This document shows positions 32,902 to 55,706 of a stretch of 64,000 nucleotides of DNA, piece after piece. This DNA comes from a virus. Made by a program: the position numbers and the translations under genes. The notes under the pieces are model-generated. The model did no database searches, had not been told where the DNA came from, and saw only the letters and a program-made list of their open reading frames with translations. Each line of letters starts with the position of its first letter. Positions within the stretch are counted from its first letter, which is position 1. The stretch spans positions 2,820 to 66,819 of the IMG/VR virus record IMGVR_UViG_3300029911_000024; one strand, written 5' to 3'.

Positions 32902-33879
32902 TTAGTGGGTGGCGTCCTTGAACAGATAGCCGAGATCGGAGCCGGAGATCACCATGGCGAAGGCAAATTCGCCTCGGATCACGTCCTGCTTTTTCTTCTC
33001 GTCGTAATACTGGTCGATGCGGACGCCCGCGTCGTTCATGCCGGTCAGCTTCGACCAGCAGAAGATCGTGGCGGCAGTCGGCGACATCAGCGTCGGCGCA
33101 CCTTCCTTGTAGGTCAGCAGCGCGTTGCTCGGCACCGCAAAGTTCTGCGTCTTGGAGGCCGCACCTTCGTTGGTGGACGAATAGGACGCCTTGGAGACGT
33201 GATATTCATCAAGCTCGAAGAACTTGGCGATGATCGCGGCGGTGATGGATTCCGCGGAAGTGTACTTGATGCGGTCCTTGATGATCGGGTGGCGCTTGAG
33301 CGCCTGATGCACCGAATAGCCCACGGTGAACACGTTGCCCTCAAAGCCGGTGGTTTTCACCATCAGGTTCTTGGCGTCGTCCATGTTCTTTTCCGGGTCC
33401 GACGCATAGTCGTCCCAGGAGGTGAAGTCGGTGCCACCACCGGCGGTGCCATTCTTGGTAGTCGCCCAGCCTGAGGTCGACAGCATGAAGTTGGTCGCGA
33501 ACAGGCGCTCGCGGCGGATCATCATGCGCTGGGTGACAAGCTGCGCGGCGGCCTTGTCCAGCGGCAGGCCAGGATCGGTGTTGGCCTGGGTCATCTGCGA
33601 CAGCGGCACGGCGGTCCACCAGGGGGTGGCGTTGTAGTTCTGCTTGGACAGCGTGAAACCGGACTGGGGGGCTTCCTCGTTTTCCGCGCGGACCTTCACC
33701 GCGTCGTCGCGCATCCAGTCGTCCTTGTTGAACACAAAGTAGAGATCGGACTTGTGCTCAACCGGGAAGGTCGGGATGGCGTTGCCGCCGATGAAGTTCT
33801 GGTTGTCCTGAATATAGGCCAACGAGAAATCGGTCAGCGCCGCATCGGCGTGGACGTCGGAACTGGTGGGCTGTGCCAT
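32902..33879 (-). CDS. Major capsid protein (lambda gpE-like)
   Basis: H.DAALTDFSLAY, WDDYASDP, ALKRHP.IKDRIKYT, DLGYLFKDA. Confidence 0.9.
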   Translation of the reverse strand: MAQPTSSDVHADAALTDFSLAYIQDNQNFIGGNAIPTFPVEHKSDLYFVFNKDDWMRDDAVKVRAENEEAPQSGFTLSKQNYNATPWWTAVPLSQMTQANTDPGLPLDKAAAQLVTQRMMIRRERLFATNFMLSTSGWATTKNGTAGGGTDFTSWDDYASDPEKNMDDAKNLMVKTTGFEGNVFTVGYSVHQALKRHPIIKDRIKYTSAESITAAIIAKFFELDEYHVSKASYSSTNEGAASKTQNFAVPSNALLTYKEGAPTLMSPTAATIFCWSKLTGMNDAGVRIDQYYDEKKKQDVIRGEFAFAMVISGSDLGYLFKDATH

Positions 33880-34449: not shown

Positions 34450-35943
34450 TTAGGCGGCCCTGCGAGCCTCGGCAGATTCACGTTCTTCCTGCTTGGCCAG
34501 TTCCGGGTTCTGGGTGCGAGCCAGAGTGCGGGCCTTGGCGGCGGTCAGCTTCGGATCGGCCTTCATCAGCACATCGGCTGCGGCATTGATGCCGTCGATG
34601 GCCTTGGAGAAGCTGTAACCGCCACCATTGCCGCCCAGTTCCTTGGTGATGACGTCGGACTTGGCCATCAGCGCGTTGGCGCTGACCAGGACCTTCTCGA
34701 TGGCATCGGCATCGGCCTTGGTCGACTTGCCCACGGCCACACGGTGCAGGATACCGGCGGTTTCTTCCGACTTGCCGATCACGAACTTGAGCGGCGCAAC
34801 GCGCTTCTCGATCACGCCGATTGCAGTGGCCGTCTCGGCCTTCTCGATGGCGGCCTGCTGGGACTTGATGACGGCGAAGGTCACGTCGCCGACAGCCTTG
34901 CGCAGCACCTTGGTCCCGTCGACCTTGATGCAGTTTTTCTGCGCGCCGTCGCTGTCGTCCTCATCTTCGTCCTCGTCATCCTCGGACTTCGCGGCCTTCT
35001 GGATGGGGTTCTTCTCCATGTGCTTGTCGCGCTCGTCGGCGGACATGTCCATGAAGCCTTCCTTGCCGCCTTCCGGCATCTTGGCCTTGTCGTTGTTCAT
35101 GAACGCAGCATGCTTGCCGGACATTTTCAGAACGGCATCGGCGCGCTTCAACAGCACAGCCTGCGCATCCAGCGCCTTCTGGATTTCGGCCTCGGTGGCC
35201 GTCTCGGGCAGACCCAGCGACTTGGCGATGGCTTTCAGCATGATTTCGTCCCCTTGTTCCGCGCGTGGCGCGAGCCCTGCGATGTGATCTTTGTACTCGG
35301 CGAAATTTTTCTGCAAGAGTGACGCCGCGTCCTCCCCGGACGCGCTGTCCAGCACTGCCCACGATGACGCCACAAGCGCAACATTGGCGGTCGCCATTTT
35401 GGCCAGAGTGTCCTTGCGCAGTTTCGCGTCAGAAATCTTGGCAATGTCGTCGCCGATTTGCTCGGCTTTTACGACGTTATCCAGCAATTCCGGCAACGTG
35501 CGCGGCGCGACGCGGGCGATCTCCATGACGAGGTCGCCGCCGATGCTTTTTCCGGCCTTCCAGTCGGCTGGCAGCAGCGAGGAAGCATCAAGTGCGCGAG
35601 CCCGCGCGATGATGTGAGATTTGGCCTTTGCCGGGTCTTTTGCGCGACCGTGTGCGCGAATCGCGTTTTCCAGATCGTCGCGGTTCTTGATCGGAAAGCT
35701 GCCATCCGGCATCGCCGCGCCAGACTTTGCGTCGGCATCGCGCTGATCCTGGGTGAACTCGCGCTTGAGATAGGCTTCGACGGCGGGCGGCAGATCGGCC
35801 GCGCCAGCAGCCTTGGCCAGATACAGGACCGGCGCATCAACGGCGCGCTTCATGATGACCGCCTTCGCGCCTTCCTGGCACGGCCGGTCGACGGCCGCGA
35901 TGGCTGAAAGGCTGAATTTGTCCATGATATTACGCTTCGCCAT
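34450..35943 (-). CDS. Scaffold protein with N-terminal protease-like strand and DUF6582-like domain
   Basis: SAIAAVDRPCQEGA; AMPDGSFPIKNRDDLENAIRA.GRAK; K/A/E-rich helical C-half. Confidence 0.75.
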   Translation of the reverse strand: MAKRNIMDKFSLSAIAAVDRPCQEGAKAVIMKRAVDAPVLYLAKAAGAADLPPAVEAYLKREFTQDQRDADAKSGAAMPDGSFPIKNRDDLENAIRAHGRAKDPAKAKSHIIARARALDASSLLPADWKAGKSIGGDLVMEIARVAPRTLPELLDNVVKAEQIGDDIAKISDAKLRKDTLAKMATANVALVASSWAVLDSASGEDAASLLQKNFAEYKDHIAGLAPRAEQGDEIMLKAIAKSLGLPETATEAEIQKALDAQAVLLKRADAVLKMSGKHAAFMNNDKAKMPEGGKEGFMDMSADERDKHMEKNPIQKAAKSEDDEDEDEDDSDGAQKNCIKVDGTKVLRKAVGDVTFAVIKSQQAAIEKAETATAIGVIEKRVAPLKFVIGKSEETAGILHRVAVGKSTKADADAIEKVLVSANALMAKSDVITKELGGNGGGYSFSKAIDGINAAADVLMKADPKLTAAKARTLARTQNPELAKQEERESAEARRAA

Positions 35944-36613
35944 CGTCAAACTCCTTGTCGATGATGCGCTCGCCTTCAATCGAGAAACCGGTGTATTCGC
36001 CAGAAGCGAACTTGGCCAGAACCTCCGGCGGCGGCTTATAGCCGACCAGCAGGCCGGTGTTCTTGGTGACGATGCCGAGCGCCTTGGCGATGTCGGTCGT
36101 CATCGGGAAAAGGAAAAGATACTGGCCGATCTCTGGCCCAGCGTGCATTTCGTTTCCTGGGCGCGCTGCCTTGGCGAAATCGCAGGCGGCGTCCAGCATC
36201 GAGTTTTCTGGGATATGGTCCGGCTTCGGCGCACCGGTCGCGGGGTCTCGGTTCAAATCGTAGTATTCGACCCCATCCTGCTTGCAGATGATGGCCCAGC
36301 CGAAAACAACGCCATGCTCGATCTTCTCGACCTTGGCAAAATGCCGATAGTCCTTTGTCACGACGTCACCCCCAACCTTGACCTTGGTTTCCTGCTGCCC
36401 GTCAGGCGCACCGGCTTTGTCGCCCTCGCCATCCACGCCGCGCGTAGCATCGGCGACGATCCGGCTAAAATCCTGATGGGCCGTGGCGTCACCGCCGCCC
36501 GTGGTATGCTCGTCTGCTGCACCGAAATCGACCGCCAGCGTGTCGGCCGCAACCGCGTCAGCACCGGCCAGTCTGGCCTTGGCGGCGGCAATGGCGTCCG
36601 AATATGCGGTCAT
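35930..36613 (-). CDS. XkdF-like prohead serine protease
   Basis: VVFGWA, DHIPE..MLDAA.DF, NEMH, GEYTGFSIEG. Confidence 0.8.
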   Translation of the reverse strand: MTAYSDAIAAAKARLAGADAVAADTLAVDFGAADEHTTGGGDATAHQDFSRIVADATRGVDGEGDKAGAPDGQQETKVKVGGDVVTKDYRHFAKVEKIEHGVVFGWAIICKQDGVEYYDLNRDPATGAPKPDHIPENSMLDAACDFAKAARPGNEMHAGPEIGQYLFLFPMTTDIAKALGIVTKNTGLLVGYKPPPEVLAKFASGEYTGFSIEGERIIDKEFDDGEA

Positions 36614-37878: not shown

Positions 37879-39404
37879 AGCCGGTATTCCTTGTCGATGA
37901 AGCCCAGGTCTGGATCGCCGCGCAGATGCCATTTTATCCACGTCTTGCTGTTGGTGTAATGCCGCCAGTGGCCGCGAACCCAGTGCATGCGCTTGTGGTG
38001 GCGCTCCTCGTCGATGTCGCCCGGCTGCGGCGCACGCGGCGCGTACCGCTTGCGGGCGGTTAGATTGACGATGTGATAGTCGAAGATCGGGACACGACCC
38101 TTTTTCTCACGCTGACGGTTCAATTTGTGTGGCGCGCGCACCACCTCGGTCTCGGCGACATCCGCTTCCAGGGAGATTGACACAGCCCTGATCTGGGCGA
38201 GGCATAACCGCGCCAACGGCTCCATCGCACCAAAGAAAGCCCGGCTGATGACCTCGGCCGCCTTGGCCACAACAACCTTGGGATCACCATTCGGCATGAT
38301 CTCGTAAACGCCTGACACTATCCAGCCGTAGCTGCTCTCGGTCAGCATATAGATCGACGAGAAGTGACCATTCTCGGACCCGCAAAGCACGATGGTGCGT
38401 TTGCCGGAAATCCGAAATTCAAAGGCCACGTCGTTATATGGCAGTTTCCACTCGCCGCCCTCGAAGTCCTGCGCGTGCTTGAAAGCTGCTGCCCAGTCAT
38501 GCTGGACGACGAAAATATGCGGCGCACCTTCCGGCGACAGCATCGCGATTGCGTGCGGTATCTGGGACGCGCCAGGAGCCAGGATAGCGCCAGCAGCGTC
38601 GGCATCCATCATACCGTGGAATTTTGTTTCGGTAAGGCGTTGAAGGACAGGATGCTCGCCGACCGGCAGCAGTTCCTCCATCGCCTTGTCATTTATCTCA
38701 GTGGCATTGAGCGCGATAATCTCGCAACGCAATTCGCGGCGCTCCCGCTCTATGCTTTCGATCTCGTTCAGGCGCTCTTGTGCCATGGCGACCATATTGT
38801 GAGGGAAATGGCCAGTTTTCTGGTAAGCATCAGCGAGACGGCGCTGCTGGTCTGGCCTCATGCCGCCAAGAACCTTCAAGCGGCTGTCAATGTCTTCCAG
38901 CTTTGCGAGGGCGGCATCAAATCCCTCGATATATCCTTTCGCGCTGGCCACGGTGAAAGCGCCATGCATCATTTCGTTGACGATAGCGCGGCGATTTTCG
39001 TCTGGTATCGCCCCAAGAATCTGTTCCATGTTCTCGGCGGCGGCGCGCTCCAGGCCGGGCGGGAATGATTTTTTTGCACTCCCAACCCGCAGATGGATTT
39101 TCCCATCCTTGCCGCGCGGTATGTCTCCGACCTTCATGTCAGGATCGAGAGGCACGCCTGGGCCGAAAGCGCTATCTCCGGCAATCGAGGTGAGCACGCT
39201 GCTCGGCGACGGCATGGCGTGGATTTCGTGCGGACTGAGCGGCCGCAGACCTGATGCGCCCTCTGCGGTGCTGTGCGCCATAGGCCATTCGCGTTCCTGG
39301 CGTTTGATGAACTCGGCGTCGGTCTCACCAAGGCGCTTTGCTCCAACCCCGGCGACATGCGCCGCAGTCGAGAACGGTGCGCCCTTGGTGGGATCGCCGA
39401 CCAT
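37875..39404 (-). CDS. Hypothetical protein with C-terminal HWVRGHWR motif
   Basis: 509 aa; RMHWVRGHWRHY...WIKWHLRGD is a recurrent phage C-terminal motif. Confidence 0.7.
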   Translation of the reverse strand: MVGDPTKGAPFSTAAHVAGVGAKRLGETDAEFIKRQEREWPMAHSTAEGASGLRPLSPHEIHAMPSPSSVLTSIAGDSAFGPGVPLDPDMKVGDIPRGKDGKIHLRVGSAKKSFPPGLERAAAENMEQILGAIPDENRRAIVNEMMHGAFTVASAKGYIEGFDAALAKLEDIDSRLKVLGGMRPDQQRRLADAYQKTGHFPHNMVAMAQERLNEIESIERERRELRCEIIALNATEINDKAMEELLPVGEHPVLQRLTETKFHGMMDADAAGAILAPGASQIPHAIAMLSPEGAPHIFVVQHDWAAAFKHAQDFEGGEWKLPYNDVAFEFRISGKRTIVLCGSENGHFSSIYMLTESSYGWIVSGVYEIMPNGDPKVVVAKAAEVISRAFFGAMEPLARLCLAQIRAVSISLEADVAETEVVRAPHKLNRQREKKGRVPIFDYHIVNLTARKRYAPRAPQPGDIDEERHHKRMHWVRGHWRHYTNSKTWIKWHLRGDPDLGFIDKEYRL

Positions 39405-39946
39405 CAGTGCGCCAGTTCCAGCCCGATGCCGAACACAAAGCCACCGGAGGCGTGGTCAGCGAAATTCGTTGACCTGTAGCCGCCATGCGCGCGTATCGCC
39501 ACGGCATGCCAGACCGGGATCGAGACGCCGCCGCCAGCACCCCAGTCGGTTTCAGAGCCATGGAACAGCAGGCTGGCGGGCTGGGGGAAGTTGTTGATGC
39601 CCACCGCGCTGTACGCCGACCGGCCGCCGTCGACCTGGGCATAGGTGTCCAGACCTTCGATCAGGTTGACGTGATAGGCGAGATCGACGCCGTAGCGCGT
39701 AGACGACAGGCTGCTGCCGCTCTTGTTGGCGCTGGCGCTGGAGTATTCGCCACCGAGCGAGACCGCGCCCAGACGATAGCCCGCGCTGACGCCAAGACCG
39801 GTGAGATCGTTCGGCACCCGCGCCAGCGTCGGCGCATCGAGATTGACGGACTGGAACACGCCGTCGACGCCCAGGTACGGGCCAGCGATGGCGGGCGCAG
39901 ATGCGAGATGCACGACAGCGAGAGAGGCGATTGCAAGTTTCTTCAT
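39404..39946 (-). CDS. Outer-membrane beta-barrel protein (Ail/Lom/OmpA-like)
   Basis: Sec signal peptide, alternating beta strands, GLGVSAGYRL, WGAGGGVSI. Confidence 0.75.
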   Translation of the reverse strand: MKKLAIASLAVVHLASAPAIAGPYLGVDGVFQSVNLDAPTLARVPNDLTGLGVSAGYRLGAVSLGGEYSSASANKSGSSLSSTRYGVDLAYHVNLIEGLDTYAQVDGGRSAYSAVGINNFPQPASLLFHGSETDWGAGGGVSIPVWHAVAIRAHGGYRSTNFADHASGGFVFGIGLELAH

Positions 39947-42075: not shown

Positions 42076-42180
42076 ATGTCCCTTTACCGCCAGATGCTCT
42101 CCAGCTTTGAAAGCTGGGCGCGCGCCTATGAGACCATCGAGGTCTGTGGCTCGCACGAACTGGACGAGGTGTCGCTGTGA
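42076..42180 (+). CDS. 34-aa peptide, first gene of the rightward early unit
   Basis: GAGGAG RBS; MSLYRQMLSSFESWARAYETIEVCGSHELDEVSL. Confidence 0.55.
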   Translation: MSLYRQMLSSFESWARAYETIEVCGSHELDEVSL

Positions 42181-42389
42181 GACAGCCCAGCCAAAAGGCC
42201 ATGGAGAAGCGCGTCGAGCGCGCCTATTACGCCGGATGCAGCGGCGTGCAGATCAACATCATGGACATCAGCAAGGTGTTCAAGGCGGGCGTCGCTGCTA
42301 TCGTCGCCCAGCCTGAGATCAGCGATGCCGATTTGACCGTGAAGGTCCGCGCCATCGTCGACGCCATCAACCTGGGAGTCGCAGCATGA
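42177..42389 (+). CDS. Hypothetical protein
   Basis: GTGA overlap, coupled operon. Confidence 0.6.
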   Translation: MRQPSQKAMEKRVERAYYAGCSGVQINIMDISKVFKAGVAAIVAQPEISDADLTVKVRAIVDAINLGVAA

Positions 42390-42652
42390 GCTATCCCAAG
42401 GTCAAGGCGATCAAGGTCTATGGCACCGCTGGCGGCCAAAGCCGCGTTGCCGACATCACCGCCCATATGGTCATTTACGGCATGACCGAGGTGAAACAGG
42501 CAGAGGCGCTGTTGCTCAATTCAACCGATCTTCTCCACTTCGCCAAGTTCGTGAAGGAAGCGACAGAGCAGTCACTTCCATCCGAGACGCTCTTGCAGCA
42601 ACTTCGCGAGCGCGCCGTCGACGTTATCGGCAGAGCAGAAGGAACATCGTAA
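42386..42652 (+). CDS. Hypothetical protein
   Basis: ATGA overlap, GGAG RBS. Confidence 0.6.
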   Translation: MSYPKVKAIKVYGTAGGQSRVADITAHMVIYGMTEVKQAEALLLNSTDLLHFAKFVKEATEQSLPSETLLQQLRERAVDVIGRAEGTS

Positions 42653-43008
42653 TGACCAAGATGGAATTGCGGCGGCCGCAGCAGGCCGCGCCGACCGAGC
42701 AGGGCTGGCACTATGCTCGATGGCCTAACATTGCGGCGATTGTTCCAGTATTTGTCGGCGTCGTCATGTACGGAAGTCCGCGTGGCGACACGCTGATGGT
42801 TATAGACGGCCGAATACATCGCCAGCTATCTGATTTCCAGTGGTTCGGCCCGGTGCCGACGTGCATCGAGGCGGCCGTCCCAACCGAAACCGCGCCAGAA
42901 GGCTGCCCCAAATGCGGCAGCAAGCTGTTCGGCGAGCCGGGCGCGCGCGGCACCTATTCCGAGGTCTGCACGAATCCGAAATGCGATTACGAGGGATTTT
43001 CGACATGA
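42652..43008 (+). CDS. Hypothetical protein with C-terminal zinc ribbon
   Basis: CPKCG...CTNPKCDY. Confidence 0.6.
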   Translation: MTKMELRRPQQAAPTEQGWHYARWPNIAAIVPVFVGVVMYGSPRGDTLMVIDGRIHRQLSDFQWFGPVPTCIEAAVPTETAPEGCPKCGSKLFGEPGARGTYSEVCTNPKCDYEGFST

Positions 43009-43397
43009 AAACCCGCATGCTGATTATCCCGCCCCTGGGCCAGCCCACCATCACCGGGCTCGATCTGCCGCCGGAGCCGGACTTCAAGGCCATCGTGCGG
43101 CTGGTGACGCCGATCCTTTTCGACAACCTCAACCCTAAGGCGATGGCGTTCGGTGTCAGCCTGGAGCGCGTGCGCGTGCTGGCCGACTTCGAGGGTGGCG
43201 TCAATTACCAGCCCACCGACATGATCGTGGACGAGGATTTCCGCGAGAAGCGCCTGCCCCGCAATGAATACGCCACCACGATTTACCGGCGCGCGACGAT
43301 GCTGGGCCGCACTCCGGTGCGCACGCCAAGCGATCCCGAAATGCTGCCAGACATCCTGGGAACGGCCGTTCTGTTTGATCGGAGGGTTTGGTTTTGA
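43005..43397 (+). CDS. DUF3846-like protein
   Basis: LERV, DMIVDED....LPRNEYAT, ILGTAVL. Confidence 0.65.
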   Translation: MKTRMLIIPPLGQPTITGLDLPPEPDFKAIVRLVTPILFDNLNPKAMAFGVSLERVRVLADFEGGVNYQPTDMIVDEDFREKRLPRNEYATTIYRRATMLGRTPVRTPSDPEMLPDILGTAVLFDRRVWF

Positions 43398-43735
43398 GCG
43401 GCGGGATCGCATGCCAGTGCCCGGAAAAGGACGAGCCGCTGCTGGATAACCCCGGGGCGAACAGACCGGCGCGCGCGTGGCGGATACGCCAGTACAGGCA
43501 CAACAACAGCACCTTCCACGGCGGCTACCAGTCGAGCGAATATTCTGGGATCACATGCCTGCGATGCGGCGCGACGTGGCGCACCAAAGCAGCCTATGTC
43601 GACTTGCTGCAATACATCAGCCGGGACGAGGAATATTGGTATTCCGACCGGTCAAGTTACGAGGCGGTGATGAAGCGGCTTGGTAGGCCGCCGGATCACG
43701 GGAGGCCAGCATGTCCACCGGACCACAAGGCCTAG
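43394..43735 (+). CDS. Hypothetical Cys-containing protein
   Basis: CQC...CLRCGATWRTKA; GGAGG RBS. Confidence 0.6.
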   Translation: MSGGIACQCPEKDEPLLDNPGANRPARAWRIRQYRHNNSTFHGGYQSSEYSGITCLRCGATWRTKAAYVDLLQYISRDEEYWYSDRSSYEAVMKRLGRPPDHGRPACPPDHKA

Positions 43736-43786
43736 CGGCCAAAGCGTCCCCTGTGCTATATGCGGCAATCCATTGGGAGTCGCAGC

Positions 43787-44065
43787 ATGGCATCGCGGAA
43801 AGAACGGGCGAAGTTTTACGTCGACGCGCTGGCGCGGCTGGGCCTGTCCCAGGCCAAGGCGTCGATCTTTTTCGGCTTCTCGACCCGAAAGTCACGCCGC
43901 ATCGTCGGCTGCCACACCGATCTGCCCCAGGCCGAGGAAATGCTGCTCAAGGTGATGCTGCATACCGGGCTGACGGTCGACGCCGTCAAGAAAATCTGCA
44001 ACCCGGACGGCGAGCCCGCGCCCAAGAAAGCGCCGCGTCGCGCAGCCGCAGCGACCGCCACTTAA
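43787..44065 (+). CDS. Cro/XRE-like HTH protein
   Basis: ALARLGLSQAKASIFFGFSTRKSRR...LP....LL; GGAG RBS. Confidence 0.65.
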   Translation: MASRKERAKFYVDALARLGLSQAKASIFFGFSTRKSRRIVGCHTDLPQAEEMLLKVMLHTGLTVDAVKKICNPDGEPAPKKAPRRAAAATAT

Positions 44066-44088
44066 ACCCGGACATATCGTCCCCATAT
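44061..44088 (+). promoter_or_regulatory. Promoter for 44108-44326 with GGAC-N5-GTCC in the spacer
   Basis: CTTAAA-N16-CCATAT, followed by GAGGAGG RBS. Confidence 0.55.
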
Positions 44089-44107
44089 CAGTTTCGAGGA
44101 GGTCAGC

Positions 44108-44326
44108 ATGGCTGGCAAAATTAACTACGCCTATTTGGATGAAAGCCCGGTCGTTTTTGACAACGACAAGGCTTTCGAGTGGGTGCAGGGACAAACCACG
44201 GCAGGGCGCTGGGTGCCGCTGCACATGGCGGATGCGCGCTCCAAGGCGCGGCTGCTGACGGCGTCCGAGTTCAATGACTACGCGGCGCGCTCCGGCGCGA
44301 GCGGGTGGACAACCCTTTTCCACTGA
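44108..44326 (+). CDS. Small protein convergent with and overlapping the RelA/SpoT-like module (candidate immunity protein)
   Basis: GAGGAGGT RBS, own promoter, 49-nt 3' overlap. Confidence 0.65.
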   Translation: MAGKINYAYLDESPVVFDNDKAFEWVQGQTTAGRWVPLHMADARSKARLLTASEFNDYAARSGASGWTTLFH

Positions 44327-46200
44327 TCTGGCAGGCTGTCGCGCGCTGCGCCGTACAGCTTGATCTGCGCCTGGGCGAGCGCGTCCTTGCCAGGATCGCT
44401 ATCCGGCAAAGACCGCCACTGCTTGTAAAGCGTATGGCCACCGCCGCCTGATTCACTCTTGGCGTTGATAAGCTCTGGCGGCGCGAGCAGCACTTCCCCG
44501 ATCTGGCCATTCTTGAACTGGACGTTCACCGCCCGGTCAAAATACCCAACGTCCGTCGTCTTGTAGCCCTCGTCGGTGGCGGGGAAATGCTCGGCCAGCA
44601 TCTTGGCGACCTTGTCGGCCTGCTCCGGGGTGTCGACCGCGAAGGTGCCGCGCACGATGTCGGTCACGCCAGCCGGTTCGCGCCCGGCCGCCATCTTGGC
44701 CAGGGCAGCGTGGAAATCCTTCTCCAGCACGCGCGGCAGCTTCTTGACGCCGGGGCTACGCCACTGCGCGCCCGTCGCGGCCGCGATTTTATCCCCAACA
44801 TTGTCGAGCGTCGCCTTGTTGGCTTCCGCGCCAGCATAGACCTGCTCGATGGTTTTGAGCGGGCTGGCCTTGATCCAGCCAGCCTTGACATCCCGCGCAT
44901 CGTGCGGGCCCACCGCCTTGGTGCCTGGGCTGTCACCACCGCTCCAGCGGCCGTCATCGTCGCGCGGCTGATCGGGATCGTATTTCGCGAAGGCCTTGGC
45001 GATCATCTTGCGCAGGCCTTTTTCCTGGGCCCAGTTCTCGTTGATCCCGGCATGGACTTCCGGCCCGAACACCAGCGGGAAGCTTGGCGGCTCGATGGCG
45101 CGCACGTCCTTGCCCTGGGTGTCATAGGACAGGGTGATGTGGGTGAGATATTTGGGCCAGTCGTGCGTCGCGCCAGCCGCCATTGCCTCGGCGTGCCGCG
45201 CCTGGAGCGCAGGGCTTTGGAAATGAAGCACCACGGCACCCTTGTCGCCAAGGGCTGACAGATGCCGGTGATCGCCCACCGCCATCACGGTGTCGCTGCG
45301 CGGCTCCAGATCGACCGGCTTGCGGCTGTAGACCTGGGTGACATGCATTTCGTGGGGAGGGACGAGGTTGGGGATGCCAGCCGCTTTCGCCCAGGCGTGC
45401 AGCCGGTCGGCGTTGGCCAGCGGCCGGTGGACGTACAGGCTGTCAGGTGCAGCCAGCTTGGTGATGGTTGAGGCGGCCCGCAACGCATCGCCGAACGAGA
45501 TCGCCTTCCCAGCGGGCACGCCGCGCCCGACAATGACCTCGTGATATTTCCCGTTTTTGGTGACGTTGACAGCCACAACTTGGGAAACAGGAATATCCCG
45601 CTGCACTATGTTGTCGCCGAACTGGGCAGCGAACTCCCTGGTGGTCGCCCAGTTCTGGGTGGCCTTGGTGCGCTGCAACCCCACGGCGCGGAACAACGGA
45701 ATCTTGTCGCCATACTGGGCGCGTAGCACGGTGCGGGTGGCCGCGAAATTGTCGTAAAACTGATTTGGTGTCACCAGCTTGCTCTTGCCATCCATGATGT
45801 CGTCGATGGCAGTGTTGCTGTTTTTGGCGGTGCCATAGGCCGCATCGCTGATCGCCATATAGATCGGCTTGGTGCGCAACAGATCGGTGTGCGCGGCGAC
45901 GACAACGGCTGGTGACAGCGTGCTCATTGTTTCTGCGGCTGTGGCGATCTTTTCCGGTGTGGTCGGCTTTGAAAGATCGAAGCGCAGCGACCCAGCCTGC
46001 CGCACATGTTCCTGAAATGCTAAGGCATCTGCGCCAGTCAACGTCCCCTTTTGGCCCAGGGTACGAATGGCATCCACCTCGGCCTTGAGGCGCTCTCGCT
46101 TCTCGTCACGCGATCCACCCTCGATGCTGGAAAAGCGGCCGAGATCGTCGTGGTTTTCGTTGTATTTTAGGAACCGCTTCTGCGCTTCAAGCCGGGAACC
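44278..46200 (-). CDS. Polyvalent protein, distal part: ART-like + Acb1-like 2H phosphodiesterase + RelA/SpoT-like nucleotidyltransferase
   Basis: LFRAVG..NWATTREFAAQF..YHEVIV; SLYVHR..MHVTQVYSR..HITLSYD..LVFGPE; GVKK..R..EK..DIVRG..GYFD..VNV..GEV..GHTLY; frame stays open up to the TAG at 46203-46201. Confidence 0.8.
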   Translation of the reverse strand, partial: GSRLEAQKRFLKYNENHDDLGRFSSIEGGSRDEKRERLKAEVDAIRTLGQKGTLTGADALAFQEHVRQAGSLRFDLSKPTTPEKIATAAETMSTLSPAVVVAAHTDLLRTKPIYMAISDAAYGTAKNSNTAIDDIMDGKSKLVTPNQFYDNFAATRTVLRAQYGDKIPLFRAVGLQRTKATQNWATTREFAAQFGDNIVQRDIPVSQVVAVNVTKNGKYHEVIVGRGVPAGKAISFGDALRAASTITKLAAPDSLYVHRPLANADRLHAWAKAAGIPNLVPPHEMHVTQVYSRKPVDLEPRSDTVMAVGDHRHLSALGDKGAVVLHFQSPALQARHAEAMAAGATHDWPKYLTHITLSYDTQGKDVRAIEPPSFPLVFGPEVHAGINENWAQEKGLRKMIAKAFAKYDPDQPRDDDGRWSGGDSPGTKAVGPHDARDVKAGWIKASPLKTIEQVYAGAEANKATLDNVGDKIAAATGAQWRSPGVKKLPRVLEKDFHAALAKMAAGREPAGVTDIVRGTFAVDTPEQADKVAKMLAEHFPATDEGYKTTDVGYFDRAVNVQFKNGQIGEVLLAPPELINAKSESGGGGHTLYKQWRSLPDSDPGKDALAQAQIKLYGAARDSLPDQWKRVVHPLAPERAA

Positions 46201-46974
46201 CTACCGATCCCGAATCCCCCGCCATAGGTCTCCGGCGCTGCTTCCCTGATACCGGGATGCGTCAGCGGCGATGACGCGCTCGTAGGCTTCCCGGCCGCGC
46301 TGGCGCTGCTCGGCGTCGCTGCCTGTGCCTTGGTCGTCTCCGATGAACTCGGCATGTCCGGCGGTCCTTGTGGCCACGGTGTTGTGGGCGACGGCGAAAT
46401 CACCGACAGCGTGCCCGAGCGAGCCGTCAGTGTCCACCACCAGCACGCGGGTGCCGGTGGAGCTTGGAATCAAGGTGTGGAACCCGATGCCAGCTTTCAA
46501 GAGGGCCGCGTGGGTATCGGCCGGGCCGCCCGGCACCGTCAGGTCATACATGGCCTGCGGGCCGTCCTGGGCCTTGGTAAAGACCAAGACCGCCTTCTGG
46601 GCGGCGAGGTGGCCTTTCATCACCGTGGCAAGCCGCATGGCCTCCGGCGTGGCGTTCTGGCTTTCGGTGACGGTCGAGTTTTCCGCGCCGTCCGACCATG
46701 CGCCGATCACGCCCGCGCTGCTGCCGGTGATCCCCAGGCGGCTGTCGATGTCCCGAGACATGGCCTCGAAAAGCTTCTGACGCGGCCCAGCGAGGTCGTG
46801 GGCAGCGCCGCCGAAATCCTTGTCATGGATGCTGGGGCTGGCGAACGCCGCGCCGCCGCCGGTCCATTTGCCGTCCTGATCTCGGGCCTCGTCCGGGTCA
46901 AACTTGTGGATGGCAGCCGCAGCAGCCAAGGCTTGATCGAATGAAAGCGCGCCCACCGCTACCGTCTCCCCCAT
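46201..46974 (-). CDS. Polyvalent protein, proximal part (possible SAM-lyase-like module)
   Basis: KFDPDEARDQDGKW leader; GAWSDGAENS...QKAVLVF; ends in TAG in frame with the next ORF. Confidence 0.7.
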   Translation of the reverse strand: MGETVAVGALSFDQALAAAAAIHKFDPDEARDQDGKWTGGGAAFASPSIHDKDFGGAAHDLAGPRQKLFEAMSRDIDSRLGITGSSAGVIGAWSDGAENSTVTESQNATPEAMRLATVMKGHLAAQKAVLVFTKAQDGPQAMYDLTVPGGPADTHAALLKAGIGFHTLIPSSTGTRVLVVDTDGSLGHAVGDFAVAHNTVATRTAGHAEFIGDDQGTGSDAEQRQRGREAYERVIAADASRYQGSSAGDLWRGIRDR

Positions 46975-52003: not shown

Positions 52004-52243
52004 TCATTCGCCGCTTTCGTTGCCATAATCTTTGCAGCACGGGCCCAGCCAGACACCGCCATGGATGCGACGCCAACCTTCCGCTGCCGCCAGCCTGCGC
52101 ATGATGATGTAATCCTCGCCAACGGTGTGAAACCCGCCAGGGAACAGCGCACCGGATTTGGCGCAGCCGTCGCAGTCCAGCGTCATCGACAGCAGCATCA
52201 GCGGGCCGTCAGGATTCGGGATGCTGGTGAGGCGCTGGACCAT
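52004..52243 (-). CDS. Small zinc-finger-like protein
   Basis: CDGC...AEGW......LGPCC; TGATG overlap. Confidence 0.55.
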   Translation of the reverse strand: MVQRLTSIPNPDGPLMLLSMTLDCDGCAKSGALFPGGFHTVGEDYIIMRRLAAAEGWRRIHGGVWLGPCCKDYGNESGE

Positions 52244-52800
52244 CAATAGTCGATCACGGGCTGGCGGTGCGCTTTGCCATACTGCTGGTCGAGGCGCAGT
52301 GCTGCGGCGCGGTGCTGCTCGCGCCCCCATTGATGCGCCATCCAGCGGCCGAACTTCTGGACATAGGCGAAATACCGATAGGCGTTCATCGCCCCTCTGC
52401 CCTGGTTGCATAGATGACAGGCGATAATCTGGTTAGACCAGAAACAGCGGCCGCCAGCAGCGCGCGGCACCACCTCGTCTATGGTCGCCCGATTGTGCGC
52501 CCCATCTTTGATGTGATCGAACACACGCTGGCCGCAATAACCGCATCGGTGGTTCTGGGCCTCCAGCAGCGCCGAACGCTTGTCATAGTCGCGCGCCTCG
52601 GTGGATTTCAGCGGGAAATCATCCTGGCCGTGATGCCGAAACGCTTTTCGGCGCGGCTGCTGGTAAAGCCAGTCGGCCTCGTCGAACTTGCTGACGAACT
52701 GCTGGTGGATCGGGACGCGGGGACGCGGATCGACACCAAATTCAGCCGACAGCTTTGCCGCCGCCTCGTCTGACAACAGCTTTGCATATCGCACGCCCAT
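52243..52800 (-). CDS. HNH endonuclease
   Basis: QNHRCGYCG...ATIDEVVPRAAGG...N...ACHLCNQGRG; the usual DH is DE here. Confidence 0.75.
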   Translation of the reverse strand: MGVRYAKLLSDEAAAKLSAEFGVDPRPRVPIHQQFVSKFDEADWLYQQPRRKAFRHHGQDDFPLKSTEARDYDKRSALLEAQNHRCGYCGQRVFDHIKDGAHNRATIDEVVPRAAGGRCFWSNQIIACHLCNQGRGAMNAYRYFAYVQKFGRWMAHQWGREQHRAAALRLDQQYGKAHRQPVIDY

Positions 52801-52994
52801 CAGCACCGCCCGCGATAGATCGGGCCATGGTGCTCGCGCGCCAGCTTTTGGGAATGGGCGCGCATCGCCTGGGCGTCGGCGATCATCTGCTGCTGCGCAG
52901 CTTGGTTGCCGCCATGGCGCGCGCCGCGCATCAGGTCGTGGGCTTGGTCGAGAAGCTGGAGCGCGAAGGCCAGTTTCGGTGGATGCTGCATCAC
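52800..52994 (-). CDS. Hypothetical protein
   Basis: Coupled small ORF. Confidence 0.45.
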   Translation of the reverse strand: MMQHPPKLAFALQLLDQAHDLMRGARHGGNQAAQQQMIADAQAMRAHSQKLAREHHGPIYRGRC

Positions 52995-53176
52995 ATTTCC
53001 CCCAAATCGCGCCGCTCGGTATGAACTTGGCCGATGATGATAAAATGCTGCATGATGTCGTCGGAAGCCGTTGTCGCATTGGCTTGCGTGAGGGTGGCTT
53101 CCCAAAGCTGCGGTTCATGGATGTGCGGCAGCAACAGTGCCGGAGCCGCACTCGCCATCAAATCCCGCTTCGACAT
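52991..53176 (-). CDS. Hypothetical protein
   Basis: Small ORF after MuF. Confidence 0.45.
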   Translation of the reverse strand: MSKRDLMASAAPALLLPHIHEPQLWEATLTQANATTASDDIMQHFIIIGQVHTERRDLGEM

Positions 53177-53184
53177 GCACCGGC

Positions 53185-54246
53185 CTATCCGTCCGCGTCC
53201 CCAGTGTCGATATAGGTGATGCAACGGCACAGCGGATGCAAGGGGCCATACATGGCTGGGCCGTATGGGGTGTCGAAATATCCGTCCAGCGGCACGCCGT
53301 CCTCGTTCATGTCGGGGACTTGTTCACAGTATTCGCACAGCCGGTCATTCGGCGTCACCAGCCAGAACCGGCGCAGCGCGGTGCGGTTGAGCAAGCCCTG
53401 GTCGGCCGCCTGACCCCAGGCCATGTTCTGGGCGGCGTTGGAGGCGCGCATGGTCTCGGTGCGCGCGATCATCTGGGCCCGGTTGAGAATCGCCCGGTTG
53501 CGATACCGGTTGACCATCGTGGCGATCTGCTCGTCAGACAGCGTCCGGTCAGCGCCAGCGCCCAGCGCGCGCTCCAGCGTCGGATCGTGGCGGCGGTCCC
53601 GCATCGCCCTGGTCAGCGCTGCCCGGTCCTTGGTGCGCAGCAGGTTCTCGAAATTGGTCACGGCCTGGGCTTGGTCGTCGGTCAGACCGATGCTTTCGCG
53701 AATCTGCCGGGCCTGCTCATAGGGATGGCCGCCCATGGCAAAGGCGTTCTGGATGACCGTGCGGATGCCGTCGCGTGTTTGCTGGCTGATGTCGCGGATC
53801 AAGCCGAAATCGTAATTCCGCAGGAACGTCGCGGTGTTGGGGTTGGTCAGGTTAAACGACATGCCGACATGCACGCCCATCGTCTTGGCTGGGGTCGCCC
53901 GGCCCGCCGCGATGAAGGCATCCTCCAGCGGCTTGGTCAGGCCCGGCTTGAGGCTTTCGGACAATCCCTCCTCAACGCCGAGCGCCCGCATGGCGGCGTT
54001 GACGTCGCCCCGGGCGATGGCGTCCCGCAGTTCGGCCTCTTTGGCGGCATTGCGCACCCGGCGCAGCGCTTCAAGGAACGCGGCCTTGGTCGCTGGAGCG
54101 GCATTGTCGGCGATCTCCAGCAGCCATTCGTGGTCTGGGGTGTCAGGGCTGTCCGCCTTGGCCAGCCCGCCGCGTGCCCATGTCTGGCGGCGTGGACGGC
54201 TTCCCAGCGTCCTGGCGTGCTTCCGGCAGGCGTGGGGCAGGATCAC
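53185..54246 (-). CDS. Head morphogenesis/minor head protein (SPP1 gp7/MuF family)
   Basis: RAQMIARTETMRASN, W....NDRLCEYC, PLHPLCRC. Confidence 0.9.
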   Translation of the reverse strand: MILPHACRKHARTLGSRPRRQTWARGGLAKADSPDTPDHEWLLEIADNAAPATKAAFLEALRRVRNAAKEAELRDAIARGDVNAAMRALGVEEGLSESLKPGLTKPLEDAFIAAGRATPAKTMGVHVGMSFNLTNPNTATFLRNYDFGLIRDISQQTRDGIRTVIQNAFAMGGHPYEQARQIRESIGLTDDQAQAVTNFENLLRTKDRAALTRAMRDRRHDPTLERALGAGADRTLSDEQIATMVNRYRNRAILNRAQMIARTETMRASNAAQNMAWGQAADQGLLNRTALRRFWLVTPNDRLCEYCEQVPDMNEDGVPLDGYFDTPYGPAMYGPLHPLCRCITYIDTGDADG

Positions 54247-55706
54247 AGGCCCTTGCGCCTCCGCTTGCCCAACGTGCCGCCAGCGGGCTGGCCTGCGGCT
54301 CCAGCCGCAGGTTTGGCACCGGGCGTCTTGCCGGGTGGCGGCTGGGTCTTGGCCTTAATCTGATCTTCCGCGTTTTGCTGCTCCAGTTCGGCCGCGTCGC
54401 TGACAGCCGTTGGATTGTCGGCGGTGGGCAGACCAGCCTCCTCGCGCAGATGGGCCTCCAGGGTGTCGTCGGGCACCAGCGCGCCAGCGGCCGCAATGTC
54501 CTGAATGTACTGGCCGAGTTGCAGCAGGTCGGACTTGGCGATGTCGCCGTGGGTGACGTTGACGTTGCCCTTCATGCTGTTGAGCAGCAACAGGTCGTTG
54601 GCAGCTTTCTGGACCTCGGACGCGATGATGTCGAGGAAGTCGATCACCGCGTTGTTGAAGTTCTCGGATTTGCTCTGCGACTGGGTGCCGTGGCCGCCCA
54701 TCCCGCCCTTGCTGGACTGCTGGCCCAGGGTGATGAAATCCGCCAGCATCGAGGCCGCCATGCCGTGGTCATAGCGGTTGATGATCTCGGTGGTGTGGAA
54801 CTGGCGCGAGCCGCCGGTCGACAGAAGGTCGACGCTGAAGATCAGGTTCTTGTTGGCGTCATAGATCGCAGGGATGACGAGACCGGCCTGCTCGTTCTGG
54901 TTGATGAGGTTGACCATGTCCTTGGCCGCCTGGAGCGCGGTTTTGTCGTCGTCGCTGGCGTCCGACTTGAACCACGCTGGCGGGCACGAAACCACAGGCA
55001 GGCCAGCCAGATCGCGCGACACGCCGATGGCCTCGATCTGCTGCACCCGCTTCTTGAGGAAATAATAATTATACATCGACCGCATGATGCTGCGGCCTTC
55101 CGGGTTTTGCTTGTAGGGCGTGGTGCGGAAATGCAGGCACTTGGACAGCGGCACGTTGAGCAGGGGGCCGCCGGTCGGCAATAGCTGCACCATCGACAGC
55201 GCGTTGCCCTGCGGATCGAAAACCCAGTGCAGCAGCGTTTCCTGGGCACGCCCGGCGAACTTGCGCCAGCCGATCAGGCCATCGGTGTACTGGCTGCGCT
55301 GCGACGGGTCAGGATTGGTCGGACCGCGCCGGTATTTGTAGACCTTCTCGTAAACACCAAAGCCGTATTGCAGGAACGACAGCGCGTCGGCCATGAAGTC
55401 CGCCCAACTGTGATCCATGTCGGAAAAGCATGACTGGACAAAATCGGCTGCGTTGGCGTCGTCGGTGTTCTTTTCGTCCTGGGGCTCGACGCGAAACGGC
55501 ACCGGGCGCAGCAGCATTTCGGTATTGGTGAAGATGGCGGCGATGATGGGGTCGTTGTCGCGCATTTCGCGCAACGTCAGCATGCCACGGCGGCCTATCA
55601 GGTCGCGCAGCCACTCCTCGCGCACATAGCCCGAGAACTGGCGCAAGCCAGACGCGCCAGATTCCTGCGTAATCAGATAGCCGCCCTCTGTTTTCGTCCG
55701 CGCCAT
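54243..55706 (-). CDS. Portal protein (DUF935/Mu gp29-like)
   Basis: EMRDND, FL.YGF...EKVYK.R, NPEGRSIMR, EAIGVSRDLAGLPV. Confidence 0.9.
   Translation of the reverse strand: MARTKTEGGYLITQESGASGLRQFSGYVREEWLRDLIGRRGMLTLREMRDNDPIIAAIFTNTEMLLRPVPFRVEPQDEKNTDDANAADFVQSCFSDMDHSWADFMADALSFLQYGFGVYEKVYKYRRGPTNPDPSQRSQYTDGLIGWRKFAGRAQETLLHWVFDPQGNALSMVQLLPTGGPLLNVPLSKCLHFRTTPYKQNPEGRSIMRSMYNYYFLKKRVQQIEAIGVSRDLAGLPVVSCPPAWFKSDASDDDKTALQAAKDMVNLINQNEQAGLVIPAIYDANKNLIFSVDLLSTGGSRQFHTTEIINRYDHGMAASMLADFITLGQQSSKGGMGGHGTQSQSKSENFNNAVIDFLDIIASEVQKAANDLLLLNSMKGNVNVTHGDIAKSDLLQLGQYIQDIAAAGALVPDDTLEAHLREEAGLPTADNPTAVSDAAELEQQNAEDQIKAKTQPPPGKTPGAKPAAGAAGQPAGGTLGKRRRKGL

Follow-up and report, generated by a model that had tools for sequence, protein, structure and literature searches.

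A recurrent leader peptide precedes the effector modules of a split phage polyvalent gene and co-occurs with S78-clan proteases

Introduction

Polyvalent and MuF-linked effectors are thought to be the route by which many phages deliver anti-defence enzymes and toxins together with their DNA. To our knowledge, the loading and release of such cargo is understood only for T4, P1 and a few giant phages. In T4, the head-internal proteins that are ejected carry an N-terminal capsid targeting sequence, which is removed by the prohead protease gp21 at L/I-x-Glu. Other short peptides that bear comparison are the cargo-loading peptides of encapsulins, which are short, disordered and usually C-terminal and bind the HK97-fold shell directly, and the pre-toxin junction motifs of polymorphic toxins (VENN of CdiA and PxxxxDPxGL of Rhs), of which the Rhs motif is also a cleavage site. 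Here we analyse a 64,000-nucleotide stretch of viral DNA (positions 2,820 to 66,819 of the IMG/VR record IMGVR_UViG_3300029911_000024; hereafter the window), in which two short peptides, motifs A and B, precede the modules of a multi-domain effector protein that is predicted to be packaged in the phage head.

The closest described effectors are the polyvalent proteins (Iyer et al., 2017, PMC5512222) and the MuF polymorphic toxins (Jamet et al., 2017, PMC5576092; the Apk2 study, PMC12226406). The junction motif is absent from the retrieved passages of these papers, where 'linker' occurs nowhere in PMC5512222, and 'motif', 'linker' and 'cleav' nowhere in PMC5576092. Nor did the searchable literature, taken as listings and retrieved passages, yield a description of it.

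Results

Two peptide motifs mark the module junctions

The effector locus lies on the minus strand of a complete phage genome of 66,819 bp with direct terminal repeats. A first-pass annotation made from the sequence alone had read it as a single polyprotein. It is not one open frame, however: the minus-strand frame from 46974 holds an open reading frame (ORF) of 257 amino acids (aa), here ORF1, is cut by a TAG codon at 46203..46201, and then runs on for 640 further open codons to 44278 (the second frame). AlphaFold2 (AF2) models of the two frames give a predicted local distance difference test score (pLDDT) below 50 at ORF1 residues 1-39 and at second-frame residues 1-27, 228-252 and 387-434, which are the four junctions. 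Each junction contains a short predicted helix that ends at or near a Lys (I-H-K, F-L-K, I-T-K and F-A-K). In three of the four the helix is followed by motif B and a Gly-rich stretch, and before the Acb1 module the motif A helix stands alone. The elements are as follows (E-values given here are to the motif profile A3, introduced below).

46903..46944, minus strand: motif A copy 1 (SFDQALAAAAAIHK), a short amphipathic helix with Lys as its last residue (helical in AF2 at residues 12-20, pLDDT <50)
46864..46905, minus strand: motif B copy 1 (KFDPDEARDQDGKW), then TGGG (E 9.3e-15; disordered in AF2)
46120..46200, minus strand: leader 2 (GSRLEAQKRFLK-YNENHDDLGRF-SS; pLDDT <50 at residues 1-27 of the second frame)
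46132..46167, minus strand: motif B copy 2, a His variant (KYNENHDDLGRF), within leader 2
45457..45498, minus strand: motif A copy 2 (SFGDALRAASTITK), directly before Acb1 and without motif B (pLDDT <50 at 228-252)
44899..45042, minus strand: leader 4, made of the helix KMIAKAFAK, motif B copy 3 (YDPDQPRDDDGRW) and an SGGDSPG linker (E 1.6e-14; pLDDT <50 at 387-434)
44944..44985, minus strand: motif B copy 3 including the preceding K (KYDPDQPRDDDGRW), a match to the regular expression

Motif A was searched as SF.DAL...K and motif B as the regular expression (regex) K[FY][DN]x[DN]..(R)D..G[KR][FW], which was composed post hoc, after the motif had been seen. The six-frame translation of the window contains three matches to motif B, all in one minus-strand frame, compared with a mean of 0.003 and a maximum of 1 in 300 residue shuffles; motif A has two matches and none in shuffles. 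These searches confirm the first-pass claims that motif B precedes modules (at 46905..46864, 46167..46132 and 44985..44944) and that motif A precedes modules 1 and 3 (at 46944..46903 and 45498..45457). The further claim of a hydrophobic-x-K at every boundary likewise holds at all four junctions, where it falls in low-confidence AF2 linkers between folded modules.

We further note that motif copies within one gene differ at synonymous sites, which indicates that selection acts on the peptide; a DNA-level repeat or recombination site is ruled out by the same differences. The leader 2 element has an ortholog in the related phage L001 (KFNPSHDEHGRFSS), and a motif A-type element precedes Acb1 in L001 and in the homologues P0002, P0004, P0005 and P0010 as well.

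The motif is widespread and keeps its place when modules are shuffled

Ten of 42 Acb1-containing homologues (P0002-P0043) carry motif B, and all ten are multi-module proteins; it is found in none of ten portal-Acb1 fusions and in none of six PF14550-labelled Acb1-XkdF fusions. In the relatives P0003-P0008 and P0010 the module order is shuffled and the motif is kept at the junctions. In L001 the regex finds motif B five times within the 1737-aa ORF, once at only 18 aa from the N-terminus.

A degenerate DNA pattern for a strict variant of the motif, with Lys, Asp and Pro fixed, was searched in IMG/VR and in a collection of species-representative genomes. It matched 63 IMG/VR stretches, for which our chance estimate is far below one, and 30 stretches of the representative genomes, mostly titled as metagenome-assembled genomes (MAGs) or isolates of Alphaproteobacteria, with one Mycobacterium and one Sediminibacterium MAG. 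The 58 distinct motif-bearing frames include matches to ADPrib_exo_Tox (6), ART-PolyVal (4), Zeta toxin (4), Phage_Mu_F (4), ART (3), CDI toxin (2), DRAT (2) and two portal families (1 each), along with Acb1, TopoIB, InPase and others. Where the position of an anchor could be determined, the portal of L057 and the MuF of L058 and L040 are on the N-terminal side of the motif.

A profile of 33 columns built from 69 motif windows (profile A3) was then run against 1.84 billion cluster representatives. It matched 4307 proteins at E<=1e-3, of which 760 reach <=1e-10 and 70 reach <=1e-30; the 150 best matches range from 499 to 3849 aa and contain 2-9 matched stretches each. In Pfam, NCBIfam and PHROG the motif falls within no model, and no chain in the PDB carries it (the best profile hit is partial, at E 0.41). 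Taken together, these data make motif B a widespread leader of effector modules whose protein sequence is conserved, and which occurs in polyvalent proteins of phages as well as in proteins linked to MuF or to portals.

Two candidate links to cultured phages were set aside. A 2811-aa frame of L030 equals phi24B gp47 in length, yet it has no match to Stx phages, and gp59/gp60 of Pseudomonas phage F116, the best annotated match of this frame, lacks the motif. Separately, P0002, P0004, P0006 and L001 (11490-11560, plus strand) share a third conserved element in their linkers. It is an acidic helix with the pattern LGES(I/M)D(E/D)D.A(W/Y)ERM, placed after motif B and before the module that follows; the shorter linkers of the window lack it.

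Position and residues around the motif

A survey regex without the Lys requirement found 598 instances in 149 of the top 150 A3 proteins. The extended consensus is [FYW]-[DSN]-[PE]-x-[QEH]-x-R-D-x-x-G-[KR]-[WF]-[TS]-x-G-G-G, in which R-D-x-x-G-[KR]-[WF] is the invariant part. The 15 commonest three-residue starts, which account for 553 of the 598 instances, all begin with F, Y or W, even though L, M, I and H were permitted there as well. Thr follows the motif in 401 instances, and then [SD]-G-G-G.

In 86 of the 149 proteins no more than 60 aa separate the N-terminus from the first motif, and successive motifs are separated by a median of 247 aa. After the last motif, at least 120 residues remain in 143 proteins and 60 or fewer in only four. 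This combination of an N-terminal first motif and a long tail after the last one indicates that the motif belongs to the module that follows it. The first-pass view of the motif as a module leader is thus borne out by its position in these proteins and by the shuffled relatives.

The residue immediately before the motif (position P1) is Lys in 324 of the 598 instances against a background Lys content of 5.1%, and in 89 more Lys is found at P2. Other P1 residues include Ala (101), Glu (56) and Gly (25). Lys at P1 is combined with a hydrophobic residue at P3 in 273 instances, where the background of hydrophobic-x-K is 2.2% per residue. The share of Lys is somewhat inflated, since profile A3 was built from sequences in which the DNA pattern had fixed Lys, Asp and Pro. 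In the Acb1 relatives, which were found independently, Lys is also the commonest residue before the motif, and Gly, Ser and Glu occur too.

S78-clan proteases in motif-bearing phages

The head genes of the window, all on the minus strand, include a candidate prohead protease.

35930..36613, minus strand: XkdF-like (S78-clan) candidate prohead protease, named by alignment to the PF14550-labelled P0024-P0030
34450..35979, minus strand: scaffold-like protein of 509 aa, without motif A or B
32902..33879, minus strand: major capsid protein (phrog_1005, E 2.3e-64)
53185..54246, minus strand: MuF-like head morphogenesis protein, without motif A or B
54243..55706, minus strand: portal protein, so named for its sequence and for its place between TerL and MuF, and homologous to the portal part of L057

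The XkdF-like ORF is 22-28% identical to the PF14550-labelled proteins and 43-46% identical to the Acb1-XkdF fusions, and it matches no Pfam family at E<=0.01. His157 and Ser211 are invariant in all 14 aligned XkdF-like sequences and are its candidate catalytic residues. The ORF overlaps the 509-aa scaffold-like ORF by 50 bases in a different frame (35930..35979, minus strand); scaffold translation may in fact begin at a later ATG, or there may be translational coupling between the two genes.

The first-pass annotation had read YLAKA, IEKA and FSKA in the scaffold and LAKA in MuF as linkers with hydrophobic-x-K. The strings are indeed present. Their meaning as linkers is at chance level: hydrophobic-x-K is common in these proteins (33 occurrences in the scaffold, 4 in MuF and 24 in the polyprotein), which makes the strings unremarkable, and none of them is near motif A or B. 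A six-frame search of the window found no motif B in the protease, scaffold or MuF.

For a wider view we collected 36 motif-bearing viral records, namely every contig of at least 15 kb from the 63 stretches (35 contigs, one locus each) and the record of L001. PF14550 (XkdF) is found in 14 of them and PF04586 (HK97-type S78) in 18, with an overlap of three and a union of 29. All ten records that are at least 90% complete contain an S78-clan protease. ClpP and S49 were found in none of the 36 records, with controls that gave signal; Mu-like_Pro was also found in none, but its control stayed silent.

The sequence of HK97 gp5 around its maturation site is ...GAKTFNK|SLGSD, and residue 104 is the first of the mature chain in 1ohg. 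This cut after F-N-K103 indicates that the founding S78 protease cleaves after hydrophobic-x-Lys. Fused S78 protease-scaffold-capsid frames of 737-915 aa (L066-L076) are the usual form among motif-bearing phages with HK97-type proteases. They carry a conserved [ILVM]-x-[KR]-A just before the capsid start ..PA[MIL]TT..GWA, which may be a maturation site cut after the basic residue.

A polyvalent gene split by a stop codon

The frames, the codons at their border and the four modules are placed as follows.

46201..46974, minus strand: ORF1, 257 aa, comprising leader 1 and module 1 and stopping at an in-frame TAG (GC content at third codon positions, GC3, 0.81)
46204..46854, minus strand: module 1, a conserved alpha/beta domain (ORF1 residues 41-257; AF2 pLDDT about 85)
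46201..46203, minus strand: the in-frame TAG
46075..46077, minus strand: GTG, the most upstream canonical start of the second frame, from which the gene callers read a 599-aa product (P0001)
45520..46119, minus strand: module 2, a helical and beta domain in AF2 (residues 28-227 of the second frame)
45043..45444, minus strand: module 3, Acb1, an anti-CBASS (cyclic-oligonucleotide-based anti-phage signalling system) 2H phosphodiesterase (PF23474)
44278..44898, minus strand: module 4, a Tas1/Apk-like RelA-SpoT-fold nucleotide pyrophosphokinase (PDB 6ox6), followed by a terminal TAG

At the position of the in-frame TAG, all seven relatives that align over module 1 have Trp (RDRW), and L001 has its single uninterrupted ORF at the corresponding place. 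The polyvalent gene thus appears to have been ancestrally one frame, which the relatives keep unsplit. TAG is an ordinary stop in nine of 59 GC3-selected genes of this phage, including MuF and the end of the polyvalent gene itself, and no tRNA gene was found in the 64-kb window, which begins 2.8 kb into the genome. On these findings recoding of TAG is rejected, and with the Trp of the relatives the site is taken as a TGG>TAG change. An assembly error is also ruled out: contigs from four further metagenome runs (X2-X5) span the TAG with zero differing letters, as far as contigs, which hide rare variants, can tell. The TAG allele is real in the phage population.

The downstream frame is intact (GC3 0.78), and the second half is presumably still expressed by re-initiation or read-through. 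The GTG at 46077 sits downstream of the second motif B copy, and leader 2 is translated only through read-through or a non-canonical start. We further note that L007, L015, L054 and L057 each contain two adjacent or overlapping motif-bearing frames, which shows that the window is not alone in having a polyvalent gene split at or near a junction.

Module 1 has homologues in P0003-P0006, L001, L015 and L037; it has no match in Pfam, PHROG or NCBIfam and no convincing structural match in Foldseek, where the best template modelling (TM) score is only about 0.2, to ferredoxin-like tandem domains. Module 2 is homologous to P0021 and P0022 only. Its ESM Atlas leads (DUF4765, DRAT and ADPrib_exo_Tox, scores 0.91-0.81) make an ADP-ribosyltransferase fold possible, as a lead only.

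Module 3 is readily assigned. It matches PF23474 at E 1.6e-37 (128.9 bits, cut-off 27) and PDB 7t26 with an E of 3.1e-11 and a Foldseek TM of 0.86 (root-mean-square deviation 2.0), and it contains HVTQ and HITL, the two H-x-T/S motifs of the 2H fold. Acb1 is repeatedly fused to head proteins elsewhere (P0009, P0011-P0020, P0024-P0030, P0027 and P0034-P0043). In some of these fusions it stands between an N-terminal leader and the XkdF protease domain, and in others at the C-terminus of the portal, including the solved Pam3 portal (PDB 8hds, residues 456-616). The label 'DNA methyltransferase' of phrog_1530 looks wrong, because this family matches the start of Acb1 and the XkdF domain.

Module 4 is similar to small alarmone synthetases and to Tas1, a (p)ppApp synthetase. 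It matches 6ox6 at E 1.1e-4 and, by Foldseek, 6ox6_A at E 2.3e-7 with a TM of 0.63; 8vx3 is matched as well. Sequence and fold similarity thus predict a Tas1/Apk-like (p)ppApp synthetase. Domains of this type have been studied as Apk in MuF toxins, according to the retrieved passages of PMC12226406, which also place the immunity genes iapK and aph1 after the toxin in MuF-Apk loci. At the window locus, seven small plus-strand ORFs with good GC3 (42177..44326) lie directly against the polyvalent gene at its 3' end; one weak Zn-ribbon match aside, none of the seven has a family.

The gene combines at least two distinct effector domains with a neighbourhood of head and packaging genes: MuF (53185..54246), portal and terminase flank it on one side, and the genes for the XkdF-like protein, scaffold and capsid on the other. 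This combination identifies the product as a phage polyvalent protein in the sense of the retrieved passages of PMC5512222. We thus assign the split gene, from its sequence, to a polyvalent protein with four modules and predicted packaging in the head.

Other genes near the locus

An outer-membrane beta-barrel gene with a signal-peptide-like start lies among the head-region genes (39404..39946, minus strand; OMP_b-brl, E 6e-10) and looks like a moron or lysogenic-conversion-type gene. Directly downstream of MuF is an HNH endonuclease-like ORF (52243..53151, minus strand; PF01844, E 5.6e-5), whose true start may be later, since GC3 over the full 302 aa failed the coding filter.

Discussion

The explanation that we favour, at somewhat less than an even chance, is that the leader docks on the S78-clan maturation protease and is cut at hydrophobic-x-Lys. 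The polyprotein, here as two halves, would enter the prohead, where the S78-clan protease would bind the motif and cut at the hydrophobic-x-Lys just upstream of it; single enzymes would thereby be freed and exit with the DNA. In this phage the TGG>TAG change has already divided the gene at one junction. Cleavage after Lys is plausible in view of the Lys enrichment, the S78-clan proteases of motif-bearing phages and the HK97 cut after F-N-K103. A more far-reaching version, in which the leader is a portable 'address-and-cut' tag for HK97-type/XkdF capsids, appears doubtful. In that reading, whatever domain lies downstream would be docked on the protease or scaffold for encapsidation, and the later cut after Lys would let a single gene supply several free effectors. 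Each of these would start with an aromatic residue, which might also serve as an N-degron that sets its lifetime in the next host.

Several observations weigh against docking and cleavage by the S78-clan protease. The conserved motif of 14 residues far exceeds the needs of known prohead-protease sites, which suggests a binding function, perhaps unrelated to cutting, and Lys at P1 is found in just 54% of instances and is not invariant. The XkdF-like ORF of the window scores 14.8 bits against PF14550, below the cut-off of 24. The 36 records are not phylogenetically independent and were compared without a matched control group; seven of them, all fragments, showed no S78-clan protease, and two of the ten near-complete ones match the clan only below the Pfam cut-off. 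The population keeps a TAG that leaves leader 2 untranslated barring read-through, so at least one leader may be dispensable. No experiment on cleavage or packaging of any motif-bearing protein was found in print.

The most credible of the alternatives, in our estimate still unlikely, is an uncut address for packaging or ejection that binds a component of the head interior (scaffold, capsid interior, portal or MuF) or primes threading through the portal, with one leader per module so that any shuffled combination still loads and ejects. The motif is long, disordered and conserved at the protein level, like short linear binding motifs, and in the 86 proteins where it sits at the very N-terminus a cut would merely remove a short peptide; the T4 capsid targeting sequence and encapsulin cargo peptides provide precedents. 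However, the motif is also found C-terminal to portal and MuF domains, which as parts of the head should not need an address. In this phage the protease, scaffold and MuF are taken into the head although they lack the motif, and no binding partner was identified. Ranking next, and likewise unlikely, is a passive conserved hinge that prevents neighbouring modules from misfolding and is kept because each cassette brings its own linker along when modules are exchanged; neither protease nor capsid would recognise it. This would fit the shuffling of modules with the linker attached, the GGG-rich low-complexity stretch after the motif, and the tolerance of splits at junctions, as in the window and in the adjacent frames of L007, L015, L054 and L057. 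A passive linker would not, however, be expected to hold an invariant Arg, Gly and Trp and an aromatic start across 4307 cluster representatives, and the synonymous-site differences show the peptide itself to be selected rather than a DNA recombination site. A hinge also leaves the enrichment of Lys and hydrophobic residues just upstream unexplained.

Two further explanations place the function elsewhere. The leader could act in the next host, either by docking to a conserved host factor or, after a cut, as an F/Y/W N-degron that limits the lifetime of the injected toxin. The aromatic residue that opens all the commonest starts would suit an N-degron, and the cargo includes toxins (Zeta, ART, CDI and Apk) whose action may need limiting. 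We consider this improbable: position 2 is often Asp, which weakens ClpS recognition, no result indicates a host partner, and the association with a type of phage protease points to the capsid side. Less probable still is protease-free self-cleavage at an Asp-Pro or Asn-Pro bond, as in the NPTH of FlhB or at acid-labile D-P. FDP, YDP, FNP, YNP or WDP does open 293 of the 598 instances. More than 250 others have no [DN]-P there (YSP 91, YSE 59, YSD 43, YDE 19, FDE 17 and others, including YNENH in the window), on which ground self-cleavage is disfavoured, and the invariant part of the motif is R-D-x-x-G-[KR]-[WF] rather than the D/N-P bond.

With one sequence code standing before modules across thousands of protein clusters and linked to a single clan of proteases, the question of cargo loading and release would become testable with one reporter construct. 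The motif would also let annotators divide polyproteins into modules, many of which have no family, and it could serve as a generic handle for loading proteins into HK97-type capsids. In this lineage, Acb1 is predicted to be among the cargo delivered by the virion.

In comparison with T4, the leaders would share the principle of a short peptide at a hydrophobic-x-charged site, which is putative here. L/I-x-Glu occurs once per protein in T4, whereas here hydrophobic-x-Lys and a 14-residue motif stand repeatedly before modules. Motif-bearing phages resemble HK97 in having a protease of the same clan as gp4 (Peptidase S78), and the HK97 site F-N-K103 is itself a hydrophobic-x-Lys. Unlike the junctions described here, however, that site is followed by Ser, without a PRDxxGKW motif, and the substrate is the delta domain of the capsid protein rather than cargo. 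The leaders would be like encapsulin peptides if, short and disordered as they are, they sent cargo into an HK97-fold shell; encapsulin peptides are usually C-terminal and shell-binding, in contrast to the leaders here, which precede modules and for which no binding was found.

As in the polyvalent proteins and MuF toxins of the retrieved passages, unrelated effector or toxin domains are joined in one polypeptide, the genes lie beside portal, MuF and terminase, and packaging in the head is predicted. The use of a Tas1/Apk-type (p)ppApp synthetase as a toxin module is shared with the MuF toxins. Unlike in those descriptions, Acb1 is among the modules here and the gene is split by a stop codon. 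The junction motifs of CdiA and Rhs are comparable in that a conserved peptide demarcates exchangeable toxin modules; the motif described here differs from them in its sequence, in its phage-head context and in being repeated up to 9 times per protein.

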